Shown here piece after piece: positions 1-61,921 of a stretch of DNA of 64,000 bases (its first letter is position 1; each line of letters starts with the position of its first letter). Under the pieces are notes generated by a model. It did not search any database. It was not told where the DNA came from and was given only the letters and a program-made list of their open reading frames with translations. Source of the DNA: a virus (taxonomy: Duplodnaviria > Caudoviricetes). The stretch spans positions 20,210 to 84,209 of the IMG/VR virus record IMGVR_UViG_3300023194_000002; one strand, written 5' to 3'. Position numbers and translations under genes: made by a program.

Positions 1-52
1 GTTTCGGCTCGCGCTGGCTTCTGATGTACGCAGAAACCGGGACGGTGCTGAC

Positions 53-874
53 ATGAGCACCGATCTCTGGTTGCGCAAGATCAAGCTGCAGGTCGAGGGG
101 TTACTGTTAGAGGACTACCATGTCCGGTTCAATGTCGCGTTGAGCGACAACCCGAAGACAAGCAACACGGCGACGATCCAAATCTCCAACTTAGGCGAGC
201 ATCACCGCCATCAGTTGGAGCGCATGAAGAAGGTCTACGTGGACCTCTATGCTGGATACGAGACCAGCATGCCGCTGCTGTTTCGCGGGGATTTATACAC
301 AGTATTCTCCGAGCATTCCGGCGCCACATGGACCACGACGATCAGCGCCGACACATCACGTGTTGCGAAGAAGAAGCGCGTGGTCAAATCGTTCGCGCCC
401 GGCGCAAGCATTGGCGACATCTTCCAGCATCTCGCCAAAGAAATGGACCTCAAAATCAGCAGTGGGTCCATCAAGGTCGCGGAGGCCGCGATCAAAAAAT
501 CGCGCGCCCGACAGTTCTTCAACGGTTACTCGCTCGCTGGGACTACGCGCGATGAACTGGAGCGCCTGTGCAGATCGTGCGGGTTCGAGTGGCAGGCGCA
601 CAACGGCAAATTGCACCTGGTCCCACTGTCGAAAGCGTTGACCGACTCAGAGTTTGTTTTGAGCGCGAAAACGGGGCTCATCGGGCGGCCGAAAGTCGGC
701 AACTATGGCCTTATCGACGTGCAGTGTTTATTGATTCCCGACCTCTATCCCTACCGTCGGGTCTATCTAGACTCAGTCCAGATCAACGCTCCGTGCGTCA
801 TCAAGACTGCAAAACTCGCAGGAGACACGCGCTCGCAGCAGTGGGCCGCCAACCTAGAGCTAAAGCTGGAATGA
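53..874 (+). CDS. Baseplate hub-like protein
   Basis: 273 aa just upstream of spike, wedge and J genes; motifs (NTATIQISNL, LYAGY, LLFRGD, TGLIGRP) resemble myophage hub proteins. Confidence 0.6.
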   Translation: MSTDLWLRKIKLQVEGLLLEDYHVRFNVALSDNPKTSNTATIQISNLGEHHRHQLERMKKVYVDLYAGYETSMPLLFRGDLYTVFSEHSGATWTTTISADTSRVAKKKRVVKSFAPGASIGDIFQHLAKEMDLKISSGSIKVAEAAIKKSRARQFFNGYSLAGTTRDELERLCRSCGFEWQAHNGKLHLVPLSKALTDSEFVLSAKTGLIGRPKVGNYGLIDVQCLLIPDLYPYRRVYLDSVQINAPCVIKTAKLAGDTRSQQWAANLELKLE

Positions 875-878
875 CGAC

Positions 879-1781
879 CTACCACGCCGGCTCAATCACG
901 AACGCCTGGACCGTACGCCGGCTGCCGATCACCTCGTTGTACAGGACACGGACTTTTGTCGTGCCCGTGACCTTGACCGCAGTGAAGTCGAGCGCGTTCA
1001 AATACGTGCCCTCAAACAGGTTGTCACCGCGGTATTTGCGCAGCACGAGCACGATGTTTGAGTTGTCGGCAGTAAACACCGCTGACTGCTTGTTGATCGA
1101 TGATTCAGCGGTGAAGTATCCGTCGTCGCGATCAACGACGATCGCCGCTCCGCGCAGCGTTGAAAGTGGCTCGCCGTTGTCCACGTGGCCCTGCAGCTCG
1201 AGGGCCACGCCGATCCCTGTGATGACCTTTTTGAAGCCGTGGCGCTTGCCGTCCGCGATCCACTCGCGTTCGGCTTCTGCCTGCTCCTGCTCCGCGCGCT
1301 TGCTGATCTCGGCATTCGCGCGCGCTTGCTGCATCTCGCGCTCTTCTTTCGCCGCGCGTTCGGCCCTTTCTTCGCGAACGACGGCGCTACGCTTCAAAAG
1401 GTTCACGCGGTGCGCGGGATTGGCCCCACACATCTCGGGTGAATCCTCACGAAGCTCGCCAGCGTATGCCAAACGCTTTGCATCATCGGCGGTGTATGTA
1501 CACGCCTCGCTCGGCGTAGGCGCAGTGATAGTCGCTTGGGCTGGAGCAGACGTGTTGCGCGCGGTCCGTTCGCGCACGCCTTCGCTGATGCGACTCAGCT
1601 GCGCTCGGTGGTTGGGCGCGGCGCACAGCTCTGGTGAGTCCGGTTGGAGCTCGCCTGCTTGGGCGAGGCGCATTGCGTCCGCGAATTCATACGGGCAGTC
1701 CGCGTGCGCGATTGAGGCGACGGACCAGAGAGCGACTAGTGCGAATGTGGTGGTGCGCATGGTGCGTCGAAATAAACGCAC
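879..1781 (-). CDS. Exported hypothetical protein with a duplicated Cys-bracketed motif (moron-like)
   Basis: Signal peptide (TTFALVALWSVASIAHA); two copies of CxYxxxDAxRLAxAGELxxDSPExC; antisense to structural genes. Confidence 0.7.
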   Translation of the reverse strand: MRLFRRTMRTTTFALVALWSVASIAHADCPYEFADAMRLAQAGELQPDSPELCAAPNHRAQLSRISEGVRERTARNTSAPAQATITAPTPSEACTYTADDAKRLAYAGELREDSPEMCGANPAHRVNLLKRSAVVREERAERAAKEEREMQQARANAEISKRAEQEQAEAEREWIADGKRHGFKKVITGIGVALELQGHVDNGEPLSTLRGAAIVVDRDDGYFTAESSINKQSAVFTADNSNIVLVLRKYRGDNLFEGTYLNALDFTAVKVTGTTKVRVLYNEVIGSRRTVQAFVIEPAW

Positions 1782-1847
1782 AACCGCACGCGATCCAGCG
1801 CGAAAAATCGCAACCTACCCGCGTCTTTTGTGGGCGGAGGTGGCGGC

Positions 1848-2618
1848 ATGAGCACGCCATCGGCGCTCGACAACATGGAGCTGGTGGCGGAGAAGGCGCT
1901 CTCCGAGGCCCACTTCTGCCTGCCGGCGCGCGTAGTGCGGGTCCGCACGGGCAAGGACGCTCGACAGTTCGTCGATGTGCGTCTCGCGATGCAACGAGAG
2001 GTCGTCCAGGGCGACGACAACGAGGAGGCCGACGAGGAGTACGACGTACTCTATTCGCGCCCCGTGGCGTATGCGCAGGGCGGCGGATTCAGCGTCAACA
2101 TGCCGCTGCAGCCTGACGACCCAGTGATGGTGCTGTTTGCGGAGCGATCCATCGACGCGTGGATCGAACTCTCAAGGCGCGGCGGCAAACCTGTTGCCCC
2201 TGGAGACACGTCGCTAAGCCCTCTGCAAGGCGGCATCGTGCTGCCAATCGGCCCAGCAGCGCGCTCAGAGCTCGCGGATGTGGGCGCGCACGACTCCAGC
2301 GATTTCACGATCGGTCGTCGCGACGGCACGGTGATGCTGCGTCTCACGCAAGATGGCCAACTTGCCTCGCTCATGGAGGGCGAGGACTGGATAGCGCTCG
2401 CAGCGAAGGTCGATGCTGAAATAGCGCGTTTGGACGCGCGCATCGACTCAGAGGTGAACGCGCTGAAGCAAGCGACCGTCACGGGTCTAACAGCTGTCGG
2501 CGCAGCACTCGCGGCAAACGGTGCGACCGCAGCAACAACCTTCCAGGGCGCATCCGCAACCATACCCGCACCGACGAATCCGCAGTCGGTCGCAGCATCA
2601 AAAAGTAAGGCGACATGA
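1848..2618 (+). CDS. Baseplate spike (Gp138-like N-terminal OB domain)
   Basis: CLPARVVRV, PVAYAQGGGFSVNMPLQPDDPVMVLFAERSIDAW motifs; RBS GGAGG before ATG 1848. Confidence 0.8.
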   Translation: MSTPSALDNMELVAEKALSEAHFCLPARVVRVRTGKDARQFVDVRLAMQREVVQGDDNEEADEEYDVLYSRPVAYAQGGGFSVNMPLQPDDPVMVLFAERSIDAWIELSRRGGKPVAPGDTSLSPLQGGIVLPIGPAARSELADVGAHDSSDFTIGRRDGTVMLRLTQDGQLASLMEGEDWIALAAKVDAEIARLDARIDSEVNALKQATVTGLTAVGAALAANGATAATTFQGASATIPAPTNPQSVAASKSKAT

Positions 2619-3304
2619 ATAACGCACGTCCCGCAGCTTTTCCGGACTGGGCCAGCGACAGCACGGCTCAAGTCGTCCAGCCACCGACTGGTAAGCAGGA
2701 GGTCGGGTTCCTTCCTGGAGAGGAGGTTCCTGCCGGCTGGTACAATTGGATACTGAAGCTGATCAACAGTCAGCTCAAATATATCGATGAATCGGTCAAG
2801 ATCTCGACCGAGAAGATCGAACTGTCTTCAGGACAAGCCTGCTATCGGCATCAAACAGGCAAGCCATCGTTTGGGCAGGTCGGCACTGCGTTTACCGCGA
2901 GCACCGCAAAATACTACGGATATGCATGGGTCAGCGGGGGCTCGAGTTCAGCCGTGACCTTCCCTCTGCGCGTGCAGCCTGGGCGTCGCTTATTGAGCGT
3001 CGATCTCATCTGGTCGGCTCCGAACGAAACTGTCAGAAACAGCGCCAGCGTGTCGTCGGGACAGATCAACTGGTCGACGCTGCCATCGTCCACCGCGCTA
3101 TTGGGGGTAGGCGCAACCCTGGGCACTATCGTGCAGACGCAATTCAGTGGCGGAAATTCCCTCCTCTGGACGAAGAGTACGGTCAACGTCACGCAGCCGC
3201 AGCCCGCGTACTCCGAGACGCTGGAATATTGGCTAGATATCACGCTGGGCAGCACTGCGGAGTTCTGCGCGCTGCGCGCGATCCGTATCAACACGCAGGG
3301 GTGA
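2615..3304 (+). CDS. Putative tail/baseplate-associated structural protein
   Basis: N-terminal FPDWA...GFLPGEEVPAGWYNW motif typical of tail-fibre attachment regions; ATGA coupling to the spike gene. Confidence 0.5.
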   Translation: MNNARPAAFPDWASDSTAQVVQPPTGKQEVGFLPGEEVPAGWYNWILKLINSQLKYIDESVKISTEKIELSSGQACYRHQTGKPSFGQVGTAFTASTAKYYGYAWVSGGSSSAVTFPLRVQPGRRLLSVDLIWSAPNETVRNSASVSSGQINWSTLPSSTALLGVGATLGTIVQTQFSGGNSLLWTKSTVNVTQPQPAYSETLEYWLDITLGSTAEFCALRAIRINTQG

Positions 3305-3308
3305 ATCT

Positions 3309-3722
3309 ATGGCAGCGAGCGCGTATGCAGATCTCAAGGTGGACCTAACAACGGGCGATATCGTTGTTACGGGAGGCAAGCTGCAGACTGTGAGCGGCAT
3401 GGAGTACGCGATCCAGCACTGGGTTGCCGCGCTCCACCTGTTCGAAGGCGAATGGTATTACAACGCGCTGCTGGGGCTTCCCTACAAGAGGCAGATATTC
3501 GTCAAAAATCCCAATATGACAGTGGTCCGCGCGTTGTTCGCCGAAACCACGCGCGGTGTGCCGCTCATCACGGCGGTCCGCTCGATGAAGTTCGGGTTGG
3601 ATACAACCAAGCGCATCATGACCGTAGAGGCTGTTGCTACCGTGGACGGCGAACAGGTGACGCTGACAACCGACCTGCTTATTGCGCCAGGTAAAGGCGG
3701 GCCAGGTTCCTCAGACGACTAA
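3309..3722 (+). CDS. Baseplate wedge protein (gp25/DUF2634-like)
   Basis: 137 aa directly before baseplate J; LHLFEGEWYYNALLGLPY motif. Confidence 0.7.
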   Translation: MAASAYADLKVDLTTGDIVVTGGKLQTVSGMEYAIQHWVAALHLFEGEWYYNALLGLPYKRQIFVKNPNMTVVRALFAETTRGVPLITAVRSMKFGLDTTKRIMTVEAVATVDGEQVTLTTDLLIAPGKGGPGSSDD

Positions 3723-3768
3723 CCATCCGCCCACTTGCATTCAGCGTTGACTGCGGATATGCGCGCGG

Positions 3769-4995
3769 GTGGCTGACTATGGGCTAACACCTGAGGGCAT
3801 AAATATTAGGACGTTTGCGGATATTCGCCGCGACGTCCTTGGTCGTCAGCGCGCGTGGATCCATGCCGGTTTTCAGGACTCCGCAAACGACGTCGTCGGG
3901 CAGATGAACGCCGCGGTTGCTGAGATTGCTGCGGAGATATGGGAGCTGATGCGGGCGATCGTTGAAACACGACACCCCGACGCGGTCACCGGCGCGTTGC
4001 AGGACGCGCTCTATGCGATTCAAGCGATCGTTCGTAAGGGCGACGCGGTAAGCACCGTGAATGCTCTGGTGACGCTGGATGCAGGCGCCAATATCGCGAT
4101 CGGTGATGCTGTAGCGAGCGTGAACGGCAATACGGATGCGCGCTTTGAGAACGCTGAGGCGATGGTGAATTCGTCGGCGAGCTCGAAGTCGGCCGTCATT
4201 AAATTCCAGGCGCTAACAGCCGGTCCCGTGGTCGCCAACGCAGGCACGCTCACAGTGCGGGAGACGCTGCCTACGGGATGGCAATCGATCACAAATCCCG
4301 GCGATGCGACGTTAGGTTTTTTCGCCGAGTCGAACGCAGCGTTTCGCGCGCGGCGCGAGCTGTCGATCATGCGTGGCTCGCGACACGTGAACGGCATCCG
4401 CGCTGAGTTACTGAACCTGAGCACGGTGCGCGACGCGCTTGTGCGCGAGAACATCACGAACTCGACCGACCCTGACACCGGCATGCCCCCGCATGCGATC
4501 AACGCAGTGCTTAACTCCAGTGCGAGCGATGATGCAGAACTTGCCGAAGTTATCAGCGAAACACGCGCTGCGGGCATTAAGTCGTGGGGCTCGACCACGG
4601 TCGCGGTGACAGACGAGGGTGGAACGCACAACGAGTCTTTCTCTCGACCCGTCAAAACGCTGTTATATCTCAACGTCCGAATATACGTCGGACCCGACTA
4701 TATAGGCGATGACGCACTCAAAGCGTTGTTGATCCAGTCGGCTGAGGATGCTTCGTCACCAGGATTCTTGCGCCTCGGAACGGATGTATTCGGCGGGCAA
4801 TTCGTCGTTGCGATGATGGCGTCGGGCACGGGCATCCGCACCGCAGAGGCGCGCATCTCGACGGCGTCGACCACGTTCGATCAGGCGCAGCAAGGGATCA
4901 TCGTCGCGCCGAGTGTCCAAATGGTGTTGGACGCGAATCGCATCACCATCACGCGCCTTGTCTATCAGGCGCCTGCAAATTGGAGTGACGTCTAA
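3769..4995 (+). CDS. Baseplate J-like protein
   Basis: MADYGLTPEG start, ATGALQD, GPVVANAGTLT, ESNAAFRARR, RAAGI motifs; 408 aa. Confidence 0.9.
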   Translation: MADYGLTPEGINIRTFADIRRDVLGRQRAWIHAGFQDSANDVVGQMNAAVAEIAAEIWELMRAIVETRHPDAVTGALQDALYAIQAIVRKGDAVSTVNALVTLDAGANIAIGDAVASVNGNTDARFENAEAMVNSSASSKSAVIKFQALTAGPVVANAGTLTVRETLPTGWQSITNPGDATLGFFAESNAAFRARRELSIMRGSRHVNGIRAELLNLSTVRDALVRENITNSTDPDTGMPPHAINAVLNSSASDDAELAEVISETRAAGIKSWGSTTVAVTDEGGTHNESFSRPVKTLLYLNVRIYVGPDYIGDDALKALLIQSAEDASSPGFLRLGTDVFGGQFVVAMMASGTGIRTAEARISTASTTFDQAQQGIIVAPSVQMVLDANRITITRLVYQAPANWSDV

Positions 4996-5432
4996 TGGCC
5001 TCAAAAGGACTCTCGAGGACGGCGCGTGTAGCGTCGTTGACCGCGTTCGCGTCTGGTACGACTTACGCCGGACTGTCGACTGTGAACCCCGGCGACGATG
5101 GGCAAAGCCGCGTTGAGCCGGCATTTGGCACAGGAGGCTATGCGCGTGTCGCCGTGAGCTGGAGCGCCGTCTCTGCACCCGGTGCGCTAGACGCCGCGGT
5201 GGAGCTGGTCAACTCGGCGCTGATCACGTTCGGCGCGAGCGGTACGGCGTATTCAACCGGCGCGACACAGCTAGCGTGGCTGACGCTCTGGAACCATGCG
5301 ACGAATACTGCAGAGGCGAACTTCCTAGGACGTTTTCCGCTCAACACGCCTAACGCGATCAGTGCAGATGGCGCGAGTATCGCAATCGCAGCTGGACAAC
5401 TGAAGGTCACGCTTACCCCGCAGACCGTGTGA
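4995..5432 (+). CDS. Minor tail / fibre-associated protein
   Basis: GYARVAV...ITF...WLTLW...FL...IAAGQLKVTL pattern common in phage tail proteins; TAATG overlap with J. Confidence 0.55.
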   Translation: MASKGLSRTARVASLTAFASGTTYAGLSTVNPGDDGQSRVEPAFGTGGYARVAVSWSAVSAPGALDAAVELVNSALITFGASGTAYSTGATQLAWLTLWNHATNTAEANFLGRFPLNTPNAISADGASIAIAAGQLKVTLTPQTV

Positions 5433-5440
5433 TCGGATAG

Positions 5441-7135
5441 ATGACTCGACGGTATACAGGTGGGCGTGACGAGGCGGCTGGTTTTAACCTGCCGTCCAAT
5501 GGCGCGTACACGATCCAGTGTTGGATACACGTCGACACGTTGCCGGCAACGAATGCCGGGTTGATCACGCTCACCACGTCCGACTATTGGACCAGCAGTC
5601 AGACGACAGAGCTCGCTATTCAGTCGACCGGGTATCTGTTCTTCCGAAACCGTTTCTGGAGCTCGTCGCCTGAGTTTTACCGCGAGACGAGCTACACGAC
5701 GCCATCGAGCATTGCGCTCAACGACTGGATACACGTTGCCTATACATACGATGGCACTAACGCGCTTGCGTATGTCAATGGTGTGTTAGTCAACAGCAGC
5801 ACGCTGGACACGAACACCGGCGCAGTGCGCCCAAATTTCGCATATTGCGCGCTGGGTAGCTCTGGATATACGGGCGAGGCGCAGGCGTTAGGAGTCACGC
5901 TGCAGTCGGCGATGGTGTTCGCCTCGGCGCTATCCGCCTCGCAGATCAAAGAGTCGATGTCCACGTTGGAGCCGCCTCCTGGGGTTGCTCCGTATGCGTG
6001 GTGGCGCCTGGACAACGGGGGTGTTTGGTCGAGCGACCAATCGGGCAACGGCCACACGCTTAGCACCGTGGGCACAGCTGTAGGCGCAGGGACAGGCCAG
6101 CTGTCTACTGCCATCGGCGGATCAATCGTCAGTGGCGATGCCACGGTGATCGCCGGCACGTCGACTGCCGCCTCGGGCGGGGCGATCGCCGGTGGGTCTG
6201 CGACGAACTCTGCCGGCATCACGACGAGCGCGTCAGGTGGCGCGGTCACCGGTGGGTCCGCAGTAAATCGCTACGGCGTATCCACCTATGCGATCGGCGG
6301 ATCTGTCGCCGGCGGCGTCGTGGCCAACGCGATCGGAGCGTCGACGTCAGCGACTGCCGGAGCGGTCGCGGGTGGCGAAGCAAACAACGCAATCGGCATT
6401 GCCACCAGTGCGTTAGGCGGGGCGATCTCCGGTGGCGAGGCGCTCGTCTTCGGTAGGGTATTCAGCGAGACGTCGAAACGCGGCATCTCGCGCCTAACAT
6501 CGTGGTATCGAAAACCTAACAACTCCGCTCTGCTTGCGTCGTGGCTCGAAGAGTTCCACCTGATTCGCGTCGTTGCGCTTCAGCTGCTCGAGTCCACTCT
6601 GGACAACGCCGAGGGCGTGCATCTCGACGTATTCGGTAAATACGTGGGGTTAGAGCGTGGATGGTTCAGCGACGACGACTTCTATCGCGAGCTGCTCTAC
6701 ATCAAGGCCCTGATCAACCGCTGCAAGGGCACGCGTCCTGAGATCGTCGAGATCGCAAAGCGGCTGGTCAACCTGACAGTCAGTCCACCGGTCAACACGG
6801 TTGATTTGGTCGACTACTACCCAGCGGGTTGGGTCGCCTATTCGAACAACGCGATCGATCCGGACTACGGCAATATCGTTGCTCGGCTGCTGTCGCTCAC
6901 GCGTGCGGGCGGCGTGTGGATGAACTTTGTCTGGGCGTCGTCGCGGCCCGAGCACCACTACACACCGTTCAAGTTCGCTCCCTCCACCAGCGTGATTTCC
7001 AACTCCCCCAACGGCTTCGACGCTGGGGGTCTATCCGCAGTGAGCGACGGCACGACGGTTGTCTCGTGGGAACCGCCGCCGCTGTATTGGGGGCCTGACC
7101 CGCTCTACTGGGGAGATGACCCATTGGTCTGGTGA
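5441..7135 (+). CDS. LamG/ConA-like lectin + 20-aa Gly/Ala/Ser repeats + DUF2612-like baseplate wedge domain
   Basis: YTIQCWI...WIHVAYTYDG...YVNG (LamG); LDNAEGVHLDVFGKYVGLER...KGT (wedge) in the C-terminal third. Confidence 0.7.
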   Translation: MTRRYTGGRDEAAGFNLPSNGAYTIQCWIHVDTLPATNAGLITLTTSDYWTSSQTTELAIQSTGYLFFRNRFWSSSPEFYRETSYTTPSSIALNDWIHVAYTYDGTNALAYVNGVLVNSSTLDTNTGAVRPNFAYCALGSSGYTGEAQALGVTLQSAMVFASALSASQIKESMSTLEPPPGVAPYAWWRLDNGGVWSSDQSGNGHTLSTVGTAVGAGTGQLSTAIGGSIVSGDATVIAGTSTAASGGAIAGGSATNSAGITTSASGGAVTGGSAVNRYGVSTYAIGGSVAGGVVANAIGASTSATAGAVAGGEANNAIGIATSALGGAISGGEALVFGRVFSETSKRGISRLTSWYRKPNNSALLASWLEEFHLIRVVALQLLESTLDNAEGVHLDVFGKYVGLERGWFSDDDFYRELLYIKALINRCKGTRPEIVEIAKRLVNLTVSPPVNTVDLVDYYPAGWVAYSNNAIDPDYGNIVARLLSLTRAGGVWMNFVWASSRPEHHYTPFKFAPSTSVISNSPNGFDAGGLSAVSDGTTVVSWEPPPLYWGPDPLYWGDDPLVW

Positions 7136-7142
7136 CTGAACT

Positions 7143-8798
7143 ATGGCTACACCTATCCAGTTTCTATCTAAAATCTCCGAGGTGGCTACGGCGTTGGAGC
7201 CGTACTTGCTCTATCAGCGCCCAGTCATCAGCGATGAGCAGACGACCGCTCCCGGTGCACCGGTCAACTTCGATCGATATGTAGCGCCCACCAATGCTAC
7301 GGGCGGGTGGATTCCCACGTATATCTATGAATATAGAAGTGGGTCTTGGACATCGATTCTGCCTCGTCACGGGATGACCTGCCGTGTGATGTCCGGCGTT
7401 CGCGCCGGTAGACTGATTTGCTATAACGAGAACACAGCTGCATGGGAGGTGGTGTCCGGCGGCTCCACCGTATCGGGCAATACCGCGCTCACCACGCCTG
7501 TTCGCTGGTACGTAGACAGCGTCGCGGGCAACGATGAAAACACGGGCTCATCCAGCGACCCTCTGAAGTTGCTCGAATTCGCTATTGCGCAGCTTCGACA
7601 GTTCCGCCCGATCGCAGCGCGGGCCGTGATCGAGCTGATGGACGCTGGTCCTCACTATTTGTCTCAAACAGCGTTGCGCGACCTAATCATTCTGCAGTCA
7701 GACCAAGGTCAAGGCTTTGTGGTGATTAAGGGCGCAGGCCGTAACGTCATTAATACAAGCGTGGTGAGCAGTCTAGGCGAGACGCCACGCATTTACGTCG
7801 ACACGAACACCTCGCTTCCAACGGATACCGCACTTGGCGCCACGCTCCGGCTTACGAGTGGTGCAGCGCAGGGGCAAGAGCTCCTGGTCATGCACAATGG
7901 CGTAGAAAACGGGCAGAACCGCGTTTGGGTGGGCCCTTCTGTGCCGGCTGAAGTTGCTGCCGGTGACACCTACGAGCTCTCGCGTCCCCAGGCCGAGATC
8001 ATCGTTGCAGGCGATGCCGGCCAGCGCACCCTCAACCTAACAGATATCCGCGGGCCACTCATTTTCCGCAACGTGAAGATCACCACGGATCTCATGCTTG
8101 CGATCAACTCGTTCACCGCATTTAGCGCGTGCGAGACGTCAGACAACTGTTGGCTGCTGGCGCAACAGAGTTGCAGCATCGGCTTGTCTGCACCATTCCC
8201 GCCCGCTGCATGGGATCCCGACCTGGAGAGCAGCAGCATCACGCAGCTCGCCAGCGGCATCCATTTGCCCGGTGGAGGCGTATCGAGCCAGCTCGGGAGC
8301 CGAGTAGCAGGCACGTGCCGAACTGGCACCGTGACCGCGGCAGGCGCGGAGATAGAGTTTGAAGGCCGCGCGGATAACATTCATGCGCTGGCTGATGGGT
8401 ACGTCAGGCTGATGTACAGCCAGGCGTATAAGACGCTGCAAGTTCACCCTGGCGGATTCGTAGAGGCCGAGAACTATCTCTACCTCGACACCAACGGATA
8501 CGAGCCTGCGATCACGATCAGACAGGGACTCCTGCGCATATTGCCAGGCACCACGGTGCGCGGTGGCTACTTCGCAGGTGAAGGTATCCCCACGATTAAG
8601 CTAGACCCTGGTGGGGTGTTGGAGCTGGCGAATCTGCCATCTGGCGAAGGCGGAGCTGGCAATCCCGTGATCGCCCCATGGAACCTGGGCGGCTACGTGC
8701 AGCTGTACAGTGGGACGCAGATCCCGATCAGCTCGATCACAAACAGTCCGAGCGTATGGAGCGACAACTACGGCTGTCGTCTCATGGTGGCACCTTAA
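7143..8798 (+). CDS. Tail fibre/spike: DUF2793-like N-terminus + putative beta-helix receptor-binding domain
   Basis: QTTAPGAPVNFDRYVAPTNATGGW...WTSILPRHGM; WYVDSVAGNDENTG beta-helix entry motif. Confidence 0.7.
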   Translation: MATPIQFLSKISEVATALEPYLLYQRPVISDEQTTAPGAPVNFDRYVAPTNATGGWIPTYIYEYRSGSWTSILPRHGMTCRVMSGVRAGRLICYNENTAAWEVVSGGSTVSGNTALTTPVRWYVDSVAGNDENTGSSSDPLKLLEFAIAQLRQFRPIAARAVIELMDAGPHYLSQTALRDLIILQSDQGQGFVVIKGAGRNVINTSVVSSLGETPRIYVDTNTSLPTDTALGATLRLTSGAAQGQELLVMHNGVENGQNRVWVGPSVPAEVAAGDTYELSRPQAEIIVAGDAGQRTLNLTDIRGPLIFRNVKITTDLMLAINSFTAFSACETSDNCWLLAQQSCSIGLSAPFPPAAWDPDLESSSITQLASGIHLPGGGVSSQLGSRVAGTCRTGTVTAAGAEIEFEGRADNIHALADGYVRLMYSQAYKTLQVHPGGFVEAENYLYLDTNGYEPAITIRQGLLRILPGTTVRGGYFAGEGIPTIKLDPGGVLELANLPSGEGGAGNPVIAPWNLGGYVQLYSGTQIPISSITNSPSVWSDNYGCRLMVAP

Positions 8799-58635: not shown

Positions 58636-59042
58636 TATAGGTCGAAACCCTCATTACGGCTGGATTTGCCCGCGCTGTCTCGTCGCAAATTCGCCTGATG
58701 TGCCGCAGTGCGGATGCAGCCCATTGCTGTCGCCGGGCCCCGGTCCGGATCTCGTGCCCGCGGTGCATCCCACGCTTTCGCCTGCTCCGCGTCGTTCGGT
58801 TCCGCCTCCGCTGCCAATCAAACAATCAGGCTCTGGTGCATGAGCAAATGGGCTGTCTGCGAACGATATTCGGAACTGTGCGACGATGGTCAAATGCGGC
58901 CCTGGGTGCGCTTGCGGCACTCGTGCGGGGCAGAGCGCACGATGTCGTTGTCGCGGTGGAAGTACAGCTTGGGCCAGCAGAGCGGGATGCTGAGGTGCCT
59001 GCGATGCAGCCGTCAACAGCAGCCCCGGGAAGCGACGTCAGA

Positions 59043-59609
59043 ATGACGCAGCCGAGCAGCGTATCGCTCGACCAGTGGGCGTTCACCTCTCGCTGGGAGG
59101 GCGTCGTCCCTCATATGTACCTCGACATCGCGGGCGTCGTGACGTGTGGCGTGGGCTTCGCGCTGCGCGATGAGACTGCGGTGGCGCTGCTGCCGTGGAC
59201 ACCGGACGTGCTCACCGCGATCGATGATTTTCGCATCCTGAGCGTGAAGCCCTCCGGGCTGCCGGCGGCGTTGTACAAGCGGCACTGCCGCGCGGAGTTG
59301 AGCGGTGCGGCTATCCGCGAGATCTTCGAGTTGAAGATCGCGGACGTGCGCCGGCGACTGGAAGCGCATTGGCAGCTGTCCATGCAGCCCGTGCCGGTGC
59401 AGCTCGCGCTGGTGGATATGGCCTACAACCTTGGTGTTGCGGGCCTCACGAAGTTCGAGCGCCTGCATGACGCTGTGCAGTCGCGTGATTGGATCACTGC
59501 GGCCAACGAATGCAGCCGACGCGGCATTCAGGCGCCGCGTAACGAGGCCACGGTCGAGTTGTTTCTTGTGGCTTCCACGGAGGAATCATGGGCAACGCAG
59601 AAAAGATAG
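59043..59609 (+). CDS. Lysozyme-type endolysin (GH24-like)
   Basis: WEGVVPHMYLDIAGVVTCGVG, ALVDMAYNLG, RN-x-AT...LF. Confidence 0.8.
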   Translation: MTQPSSVSLDQWAFTSRWEGVVPHMYLDIAGVVTCGVGFALRDETAVALLPWTPDVLTAIDDFRILSVKPSGLPAALYKRHCRAELSGAAIREIFELKIADVRRRLEAHWQLSMQPVPVQLALVDMAYNLGVAGLTKFERLHDAVQSRDWITAANECSRRGIQAPRNEATVELFLVASTEESWATQKR

Positions 59610-60106
59610 AGGCAGAGATCGTTCGTTTCGACGAGCGGATCGACTCAGAGGTCGACGCGCTCAAGCAGGCTGTTGCCGCGGGTCTCGAACACGCAGCCGA
59701 GGAAATCGAGAATCCAGAAGCCGACGGCGCCAAGCAGTTCGCCGAGTTGCATCCTATCGATGGAACGCAGGAAGATTGGCCTGTTTACGCGGACCCGCGC
59801 GACCCCGACAACGGCAACGCGAGCCATGAATACTTGTTGGTGCATGGCACGTGCGAGGCCGGGACGGAAAACGCCCAGCAGATTCACTTCCAGCAAGGTC
59901 CGCGGGGAGAAGTCGGCATCAACGGCGTCACCAACGAGCAGCTATTGGCCGTGGTGATCGATCGGCTGGAAGGTTTCCAGACCTCACGATTTGCGTGTTT
60001 TGAGAACGCAAACGCGTTGGAGCATGCACGTAAGGCGTTGGATTATTTGAATCGACGCACCCGAGCGCGTTTGGCGCGCGGCGTAGAAGGGACGAACATT
60101 CCGTGA
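59588..60106 (+). CDS. tad1: Tad1-family anti-defence nucleotide sponge with N-terminal extension
   Basis: GNASHEY...IHFQQGP...NGVTNEQLLAVVIDRLEGFQTSRFACFENANALEHARKALDYLNRRTRARLARGVEGT aligns with recalled SBSphiJ7 Tad1 (GGAYHEY...IKFQKG...[33 protein letters not shown]...MNRR...R.LGT). Confidence 0.88.
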   Translation: MGNAEKIEAEIVRFDERIDSEVDALKQAVAAGLEHAAEEIENPEADGAKQFAELHPIDGTQEDWPVYADPRDPDNGNASHEYLLVHGTCEAGTENAQQIHFQQGPRGEVGINGVTNEQLLAVVIDRLEGFQTSRFACFENANALEHARKALDYLNRRTRARLARGVEGTNIP

Positions 60107-60345
60107 ACTGGGGCAGGCTTATTTCACTTATCCTGACAGTCGGCTCGATCATCATCGAAGCCGTCAGCAGGGCGAAGGCGCAGCCGAAAGAGGAGATCGT
60201 TCCTGCAGATCTCAATCATATGCGCTGTGACGACAGCGTCGCCGATCTGTCAGTCAGCCCTGAATATAACGACCCGCAGCATGGCGGGCCGGATGACGAC
60301 ACTCGGCCTGCAATCAGGCTGAATACTGCGAGCGAAAAGAAATGA
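60103..60345 (+). CDS. Small membrane-anchored protein
   Basis: N-terminal TM LISLILTVGSIIIEAV; GTGA overlap. Confidence 0.5.
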   Translation: MNWGRLISLILTVGSIIIEAVSRAKAQPKEEIVPADLNHMRCDDSVADLSVSPEYNDPQHGGPDDDTRPAIRLNTASEKK

Positions 60346-61106
60346 CCATCAAACCCGCAGAGCACCCCAGCGCGTACTGGTGGTTCAGCCGCCCGAACTT
60401 CGGTGATGCGCTTGCGCCCTATCTCATCCACCGCTTCAGCGATCGCATGCAAGTCGTACATGCACCGCTCGAGCACGCGCAGATTCTCTCGATCGGCTCG
60501 GTGTTAGATCGAGTCCCAGCTGATTGGTCTGGCGTCGTGCTGGGCAGCGGCATGCTGCGGGAAGACAGTCAGCCCGACCTCGGTCTCGCGATGGTGCTCG
60601 CGCTGCGTGGACCGTTGACGGCGAAGGCCTGCGCGCTGCCCGTGGGCGCGTCTCCGGCGCTCGGTGATCCAGGGTTGCTGGCCAATGAGCTGGTGCCGCT
60701 GCCCGATAAGGAGCACGAGCTGGGTCTCGTTCCGCACTGGTCGGACACGGAGCTGGAGCAGCGCGAGGAGTTCAAGAAATTGAACCCACTCGTGATCCGT
60801 GTGGGGCACAGCCCGCTCGACGTCGTTCGGCAGATCGGAAGCTGCCGCAAGATCGTGGCGTCATCGCTGCACGGCATCATCCTGGCTGACGCGTTTGGCA
60901 TCCCGCGGCGCATCGAACTCGGGGGCCATAAGCGCATCGCCGCTGAGGGCGGCGACTTCAAATTCCGCGACTACCACGCGGCGATCGACACGCCGTACAA
61001 GCCCGGTGAAGCGGCCGTAGTCGCTAACACCAAGGCCATCCAGGATCGACAGTCAGAACTGTTCGACGCCTACAAAGAGCTCGGATCGTTGTTCCGAGGG
61101 AAGTGA
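60342..61106 (+). CDS. Polysaccharide pyruvyl transferase family protein
   Basis: NFGDAL, IGSVL, LRGPLT, LGDPG, VPHW, SSLHGIILADAFGIP, FKFRDY. Confidence 0.9.
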   Translation: MTIKPAEHPSAYWWFSRPNFGDALAPYLIHRFSDRMQVVHAPLEHAQILSIGSVLDRVPADWSGVVLGSGMLREDSQPDLGLAMVLALRGPLTAKACALPVGASPALGDPGLLANELVPLPDKEHELGLVPHWSDTELEQREEFKKLNPLVIRVGHSPLDVVRQIGSCRKIVASSLHGIILADAFGIPRRIELGGHKRIAAEGGDFKFRDYHAAIDTPYKPGEAAVVANTKAIQDRQSELFDAYKELGSLFRGK

Positions 61107-61921
61107 TCCGACGTATGACGTGCCGCCCGCAAATCTCACTGCTGGTCCCATTCCGCGAGTCAAAGTCAGCGCCGCACCGTGCGCGCGCTTGGCAATGGCT
61201 CGCGGAATACTGGAAACACGAGCTCCCTGACGCTGAAGTGGTCGTTGGTCAGTGCACGGGTGAGGTGTTTAGCAAGACGTCCGCAGTGAACGCTGCTGCT
61301 CGTGAAGCATCGGGGCGCATCTTCGTGATCATCGATGCAGACGCTTATCTGCGTGGTGATGTGCTGCTCCAGTGCGCGCGCGAGATCGACGAGGCTGCGC
61401 GACGCGGGTTGCCGCTGTGGTTCGTGCCCTATCGCAGGCTGTACCGGCTCACGTGGCTGGTGACAGAGCGCGTGCTGACGTCACACCCGCATATCCCCCA
61501 TCGCCCGCACCATCCGCCGAGGCCAGAAGAGATCGAGCAGGTGAGCATGGTACAGTACGGGCACCACTTCGGCGCGATGTGTATGGTGATGCATCGCGAG
61601 GCCTTCGAGACGATCGGCGGCATGGATGAGCGTTTCGTGGGCTGGGGCGCTGAGGACTCCAGTTTCTTGCGCGCGTTGTCCACGCTGCATGCGCCCTACA
61701 AGAGCGTCGACGCTTCGATCTGGCACCTGTGGCACCCGGCAACCGTGCACGGCAAAGGGCGGTTATGGGACGGGCAGGGAAAGGCCTGGGCGCAGATGGA
61801 GCTCGCGCAGCGCTATGCCGCTGCGGTGGGTGATCGGTGCGCGATGCTCAAGATCGTGCATGAGGCGCAGGTGCACGCGCACTGCAAGCCGATGCACGCG
61901 CGGCATGCAGAGGAGTTTTAA
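61103..61921 (+). CDS. Glycosyltransferase (GT-A; GT2/GT7-like)
   Basis: FSKTSAVNAA, IIDAD, GGMDERFVGWGAED, WHLWH. Confidence 0.88.
   Translation: MIRRMTCRPQISLLVPFRESKSAPHRARAWQWLAEYWKHELPDAEVVVGQCTGEVFSKTSAVNAAAREASGRIFVIIDADAYLRGDVLLQCAREIDEAARRGLPLWFVPYRRLYRLTWLVTERVLTSHPHIPHRPHHPPRPEEIEQVSMVQYGHHFGAMCMVMHREAFETIGGMDERFVGWGAEDSSFLRALSTLHAPYKSVDASIWHLWHPATVHGKGRLWDGQGKAWAQMELAQRYAAAVGDRCAMLKIVHEAQVHAHCKPMHARHAEEF

Follow-up and report, generated by a model that had tools for sequence, protein, structure and literature searches.

Tad1 is a sponge that soaks up bacterial alarm molecules. Such sponges are needed when immune signals appear, so the route and the timing of their arrival are a live question. 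The canonical members of the family, the Tad1 of SBSphiJ7, CbTad1 (PDB 7uav/7uaw) and CmTad1 (PDB 8kbb), are proteins of 118–134 aa without an N-terminal helix. Tad1 assembles into a hexamer of D3 symmetry, a trimer of dimers (bioRxiv 10.1101/2023.11.15.567273). In phage phiKZ, the N-terminus of the Tad1 protein gp184 is wedged under the capsid vertex (PMC11297242), and according to two further sources the head protease cuts gp184 loose and the protein is injected (bioRxiv 10.1101/2025.11.23.690004; PMC13282480, citing Li et al. 2024). gp184 carries the Tad1 domain at the C-terminus of a longer protein, its gene lies among late genes, and its extension of ~155 residues is beta-rich, wedges into the inner capsid shell and is removed by the protease.

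Other counter-defence proteins, T4 IPI* and P1 DarA/DarB, are reportedly made late, packed in the particle and delivered with the DNA, their targeting to the capsid being said to depend on short sequences or on Dar partners. To our knowledge, none of them uses a copy of a tail-spike segment. In the T6SS, effectors reach the puncturing device through VgrG and PAAR, and in the eCIS through N-terminal packing signals, i.e., by a terminal tag or by contact with the spike; these systems are not phages, and their tags are not copies of a spike stalk.

On the spike side, proteins of the Gp138_N type, such as E217 gp43, form a trimeric tip that is released at contraction, and the spike trimer attaches to a hub of the E217 gp41 type (PMC10329688). 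Phi92 gp138, P2 gpV, Mu gp45 and E217 gp43 have an N-terminal OB-fold domain, are encoded next to the hub gene and continue as a triple beta-helix.

The locus considered here belongs to an uncultivated phage known from a single contig of 84,209 bp, of which the final 64 kb (64,000 nucleotides) were analysed and are called the window below. In this phage, a Tad1 protein of 172 aa begins with a helix that is a copy of a stalk segment of the baseplate spike of the same genome (Table 1). Whereas in phiKZ Tad1 rides in the capsid, here an unrelated and much smaller phage has joined Tad1 to a different part of the virion. The similarity to gp184 (8y6v chain I) covers residues 99–169 of the protein described here and residues 156–226 of gp184 (E 1e-8), and the match to phrog_22140 is likewise confined to positions 156–226 of that family. 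The N-terminal parts are unrelated, the one here being of ~48 residues with a single spike-derived helix, and the protein is therefore not of the gp184 type. The initial annotation held that a spike-tagged anti-defence protein has no described precedent. This was too broad with regard to delivery, since a virion-delivered and N-terminally extended Tad1 is already known from phiKZ, but a tag derived from the spike stalk would indeed be new: the literature searched describes no Tad1 on which a copy of the spike stalk of the same phage has been kept by selection.

Table 1. Features of the spike and tad1 regions, with positions counted from the first letter of the window.
Feature	Position	Strand	Basis or remark
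Baseplate hub, E217 gp41-like	53..874	+	phrog_196 baseplate hub, E 4e-51; PF22759 E217_GP41
Central baseplate spike	1848..2618	+	256 aa from ATG (public gene call P0003); ORF open from GTG 1830
Spike stalk segment common with Tad1	2400..2543	+	48 codons, 28-codon core 2406–2489; BLASTP, codon alignment
Post-spike gene, 229 aa, coupled to spike	2615..3304	+	ORF list
gp25-like wedge	3309–3722		
gp6-like wedge	3769–4995		
Endolysin ORF	58698..59609	+	PF00959, phrog_7 endolysin; stop overlaps Tad1 start by 22 nt
Shine-Dalgarno GGAGGA	59579..59584	+	Read from sequence; 3 nt, then ATG 59588
Tad1 with N-terminal extension, 172 aa	59588..60106	+	PDB 8kbb, Foldseek, phrog_2428 E 1e-32
Tad1 N-terminal copy of stalk segment	59597..59740	+	Core 59603–59686; BLASTP, codon alignment
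Canonical Tad1 core, ~residues 49–172	59732..60103	+	Homologue starts; alignment to solved Tad1
Small ORF, 80 aa, hydrophobic N-terminus	60103..60345	+	ORF list; 4-nt overlap with Tad1 stop

Sequence, predicted fold and invariant residues all place the protein in the Tad1 family, and the name first given to the gene is correct. Residues 60–170 align with residues 19–130 of the 132-residue chain of 8kbb (E 3.3e-20) and less strongly with 7uav (E 6e-14), the identity to the canonical proteins being 34–38%. An AlphaFold2 model with a mean pLDDT of 85.6 reveals the family fold, an N-terminal antiparallel sheet followed by two C-terminal helices, and the best 20 Foldseek matches are all Tad1, with target TM values of 0.75–0.83 (CbTad1/CmTad1). 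The public gene call P0001 has the identical 172-aa product and carries a precomputed match to PF24729 (Acb2/Tad1 hairpin); the local Pfam scan was empty at E <=0.1. An alignment of 72 sequences has 12 invariant columns, which the query retains by definition, and 22 nearly invariant ones, in which it shows the majority residue wherever it was seen in the consensus.

The binding pocket for cyclic trinucleotides appears to differ. R88 and T95 of CmTad1 seem to correspond to F138 and E145 (59999–60022), the numbering offset used for this correspondence being our own, and the sponge may therefore not bind trinucleotide signals. In the same 72 homologues R is found at the first position in 31 and T at the second in 34, so that over half of the family is likewise without these residues; the pocket is a sub-feature and does not define Tad1.

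The core is preceded by an unusually long N-terminal part. As the annotation had claimed, canonical Tad1 lacks such an extension: counted back from query residue 60, the homologues have a median of 11 further N-terminal residues, against 59 residues here, which sets the extension at ~48 residues. None of 120 homologues has the stalk helix, and in the few longer ones the extensions are unrelated or junk. The model predicts a helix at residues 3–41, with a pLDDT >90 for residues 1–30 and of 51–66 for residues 31–50; beyond it, an acidic linker modelled at low confidence reaches to about residue 50, and the core comes next.

Were translation to begin at the in-frame TTG at 59747 (residue 54), the helix would lie outside the protein, and the product would have 119 aa, a canonical length. 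We regard such a miscalled start as very improbable. A GGAGGA motif precedes the ATG at 59588, upstream of the helix, and nothing comparable precedes the TTG, the sole later in-frame start. Initiation at the TTG would also remove ~5 residues of the conserved Tad1 N-terminus and leave the in-frame, protein-level conservation with the spike unexplained, and the public gene call uses the ATG.

The second partner was named a baseplate spike on first inspection, and this name stands as well. The protein matches PF18352 (Gp138 N-terminal domain, OB-fold) with an E-value of 9.2e-11 (42 bits vs. a cut-off of 26), and its tblastn matches carry the annotation 'baseplate spike'. Its gene lies downstream of the hub, with one inserted gene between them, and is followed by the wedge genes; in relatives the spike gene comes immediately after the hub gene. 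The spike model is poor overall (mean pLDDT 46). It contains a predicted alpha-helix at residues 181–236 of the 256-aa protein with a pLDDT of 70–83, so that, unlike the spikes named above with their triple beta-helix, this one would continue as an alpha-helix and an Ala/Thr-rich tail. A helix occupies the equivalent position in all nine spike homologues. The only close relative, P0004, is 72% identical and is encoded on a 1.4-kb contig from sample JGI 3300040800. It keeps both of the 11-residue repeats that, together with the start of the Ala/Thr-rich tail, make up the stalk segment, with core changes to F, L, M and F at the hydrophobic positions; in several relatives at ~44% identity the stalk helix is shorter and different.

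The tail itself, rich in Ala, Thr and Pro (window 2490–2615; residues 221–262 of the ORF 1830–2618), is conserved more strongly than any other part of the spike. Between this spike and that of P0004 it barely differs, while the whole proteins are 72% identical, and the homologues at ~44% identity all end in a similar K-x-K-A-T motif.

The two helices correspond exactly at the coordinates initially proposed. The 28-codon cores encode residues 193–220 of the ORF 1830–2618 and residues 6–33 of the ORF 59588–60106, and the codon alignment gives 19 of 28 identical residues. BLASTP extends the match to 48 residues, of which 23 are identical (E 3e-10 for the pair). In an all-against-all comparison of the 508 ORFs of the whole genome, no other two unlike, non-overlapping genes match as strongly as spike and Tad1 do (E 1.2e-7), and a tblastn search of the genome with either helix for a third copy returned these two only, the next E-value being 0.04. 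Downstream of the helix the sequences part, into the Ala/Thr-rich tail in the spike and into the acidic linker in Tad1. The antisense ORFs 2051–2671 and 59494–59733 (both on the − strand) match at 20 of 30 positions and were rejected as a second gene: the antisense frame shares its wobble positions with the sense frame, which makes the match a side effect, and the sense frames, unlike the antisense matches, continue into domains matched in Pfam and the PDB.

At the DNA level the 28 codons are 73.8% identical and share an exact match of 14 nt, ATCGACTCAGAGGT, which had been noticed at the outset. The 22 differences are distributed over codon positions 1, 2 and 3 as 4, 4 and 14. Nei-Gojobori estimates for the spike and Tad1 copies are dS 1.10 and dN 0.18, i.e., a dN/dS of ~0.16. 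Neutrality predicts that 75% of the changes are nonsynonymous, and the count is 10 of 22 (binomial p 0.0026). These figures bear out the earlier view that it is the protein that was conserved and that the duplication is not a fresh one. For comparison, the spike and the P0004 spike differ by dS 1.21 and dN 0.21 over the whole gene and by dS 0.75 and dN 0.27 in the helix; judged by these distances, the duplication and the divergence from the nearest known relative are of about the same age. Because the helix is found in 9 of 9 spike homologues and in 0 of 120 Tad1 homologues, the copy moved from the spike to tad1. A copy that is old and has been held by purifying selection points to a function of the copied helix. 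On the evidence of these alignments, the transfer of a maintained domain from spike to sponge is real and statistically solid.

What the helix is can be told in part from its repeats. It consists of two 11-residue units of the form x-[VI]-D-[AS]-E-[IV]-x-x-L-x-x. A HMMER search of 1.84 billion representatives with the first 60 residues of Tad1 returned, at E <=0.001, the protein itself and one metagenomic fibre of 849 aa (P0002), in which an 11-residue unit RIDSEV..L recurs at least 6 times. The resemblance of the repeats to those of a long fibre suggests that the helix is a coiled-coil module of the fibre type. Phage fibres of this kind are trimeric, and the module may accordingly be viewed as a generic self-associating element. 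Fourier analysis of only 32 residues does not separate periods of 3.5, 3.6 and 3.67 (heptad vs. hendecad). P0002 itself is built largely of repeats of the RIDSEV..L type, and the apolipoprotein 11-mer repeat model matched it below the cut-off.

The concern raised earlier, that the helix might be a generic motif, thus turned out to be half true. It does belong to a class of 11-residue fibre repeats, but the two copies are 68% identical, while the spike stalk and the P0002 repeats are 32–42% identical. This also bears on the proposal that the extension has no function, either as a leftover of an illegitimate recombination that gave tad1 its start codon or as a convergence of generic fibre repeats. 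The generic nature of the repeat class speaks for such an origin, and so does the occurrence of the fusion in one genome only among the sequence collections searched. We nevertheless consider it improbable in view of the much higher identity between the copies than to fibre repeats, the exact 14-nt match, the dN/dS of ~0.16 at a near-saturated dS, and an amphipathic helix that has stayed intact.

The search for other carriers was wide. When Tad1 residues 1–59 were compared by a word-based search with 5.8 billion proteins, only the protein itself was found. Degenerate DNA patterns of the conserved helix residues, run against viral, metagenome and genome collections, gave nothing or chance out-of-frame matches; these scans did not recover the P0004 contig and hence lack a positive control. 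The ESM Atlas returned just meaningless single-helix matches for the helix. The 20-kb stretches obtained for the ~44% relatives contain no second copy of their own stalk. Two partial IMG/VR genomes are without Tad1, no prophage relatives were found in 185,579 species genomes, and phage GenBank contains no DNA-level relative of window positions 1–8000.

With some hesitation, we prefer the reading that the helix acts in cis, by self-association, on the assembly of the sponge that bears it. Recombination, either inside this phage or among close relatives, would have placed a copy of the stalk segment at the 5′ end of tad1. In the product, an N-terminal amphipathic helix (residues 3–41) would be joined through a flexible acidic linker of ~10–15 residues to a sponge core of normal build. 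On each face of the D3 hexamer, three N-termini might then come together as a parallel three-stranded coiled coil along the three-fold axis, and these coils would clamp the hexamer or nucleate it without touching the spike. That the helix is trimeric and takes part in assembling the sponge is what we infer from its class and from the symmetry of the core.

Several observations favour such a clamp. The homology is specific, the helix being kept in the 9 spike homologues and in none of the 120 of Tad1; the helix is predicted at pLDDT >90 with a low-confidence linker behind it; and Tad1 hexamers are three-fold symmetric, so that a new partner is not needed. Given the general class of 11-residue fibre repeats, plain self-association explains the helix equally well as docking does. 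Against the clamp, canonical Tad1 is hexameric without any such helix. Moreover, by our own count, the surface residues of the helix are conserved between the copies (14 of 20) as well as the core residues (5 of 8), which goes beyond the needs of a generic clamp. If the helix is a clamp only, a natural fibre coiled coil has been reused as an oligomerisation handle on an anti-defence protein.

The conserved surface leads to a different use of the same helix, namely as a tag for loading into the virion, which we consider possible but doubtful. The helix of Tad1 would join or pack on the spike coil, or bind whatever binds the spike stalk, and the sponge would enter with the tail tip. On this tentative account Tad1 would sit on or beside the tip and enter ahead of the DNA. 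A ready-made sponge might then, with no greater assurance, be present in the next host before Thoeris or CBASS signals build up. The charged surface positions are kept, and the copy has long been held under selection. The Tad1 helix is also closest to the spike of its own phage (19 of 28, vs. 13 of 28 for the P0004 spike), although in a three-sequence comparison retained ancestral residues produce this pattern as well as co-evolution does. Tail tips of the E217 type are released on contraction (PMC10329688). The phiKZ precedent, in which an N-terminal anchoring extension makes Tad1 a virion passenger, fits loading rather than a clamp, and the same is true of the position of tad1, which opens the block of late lysis, packaging and structural genes and is coupled to the endolysin. 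Thoeris and CBASS are, however, often triggered by late structural proteins, so that late synthesis needs no packaging. The phage also has a MuF protein with a long C-terminal extension, a usual form of virion cargo.

The structure of the spike weighs against loading. In a stalk of three helices, a fourth would find room only by displacing a spike chain. Since the spike presumably needs its own three helices, and no part of it is conserved as well as its tail, a mixed coil might damage the spike. The part in common is the distal stalk and not the hub-anchoring domain that docking modules usually use, and a single spike trimer would carry few sponges, yet the sponge acts stoichiometrically. A complex prediction for three copies of spike residues 170–256 with Tad1 residues 1–60 scored 0.18 against a mark of 0.32, in a run without controls, and speaks neither for nor against a contact. 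If loading were true, it would be a second, independently evolved route of virion delivery for Tad1, and the first example in which a phage marks an anti-defence cargo by copying its own spike stalk onto it, comparable to the loading of effectors on the spikes of the T6SS and eCIS. Short copies of structural proteins could then mark virion cargo elsewhere and be searched for systematically.

The surface conservation between the two copies would also suit a helix that mimics the spike stalk inside the cell, where it would bind a further interactor of the spike, for instance the post-spike gene product or an assembly factor, or act as a decoy for a host sensor that recognises the spike. The spike gene is indeed coupled to an apparently conserved downstream gene: on the 1.4-kb contig of the close relative the spike gene is likewise followed by a gene for a 229-aa product, the recurrence of the pair being judged by length alone. 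We hold this mimicry to be unlikely, as the case for it is purely inferential, and we know of no host sensor of such spikes. Self-association of the helix within the sponge thus remains the mechanism that we prefer.

The arrangement of the genome bears on the distance between the two genes. The large terminase gene is truncated by the contig end, and from base 1 the map goes on with the genes for portal, MuF, capsid, sheath, tube, tape measure and Dit, which indicates that the contig map is circularly permuted. The 57 kb by which the genes were said to be separated hence hold within the window and in one direction, while genome-wide the spacing is ~27 kb the other way. Along the permuted map a same-strand block runs through a GH16-like gene, the endolysin, Tad1, a putative small membrane protein, a pair of sugar transferases, TerS and TerL, and continues with the head genes, the tail genes, the hub, the spike and the wedge genes.

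The true start of the endolysin probably lies downstream of 58698. The 80-aa ORF that follows tad1 gave no match in a family search; its hydrophobic N-terminus and its place suggest that it may be a membrane protein of the lysis cassette.

Some further features of the genome deserve mention. Between the hub and spike genes, the − strand carries a 300-aa ORF (window 879–1781) with a signal-peptide-like N-terminus ending in Cys and with no family match. It is possibly a lipoprotein, and because the hub gene is directly followed by the spike gene in relatives, it looks like an inserted moron. The MuF head protein has 528 aa (genome 2299–3885, outside the window), with the MuF domain at residues 178–284; the ~240 C-terminal residues past this domain are without a Pfam match and are a candidate for a virion-delivered cargo domain. 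In PHROG 23843 and 22140 the Tad1 hairpin lies at the end of proteins of 200–230 aa; one of the two is the phiKZ gp184 family, and in the other the N-terminal part is a possible further anchor to the virion. Finally, a gene resembling polysaccharide pyruvyl transferases and one for a family-2 glycosyltransferase are situated between Tad1 and the small terminase (window 60342–61921), and these may be morons in the late block that modify the host surface.
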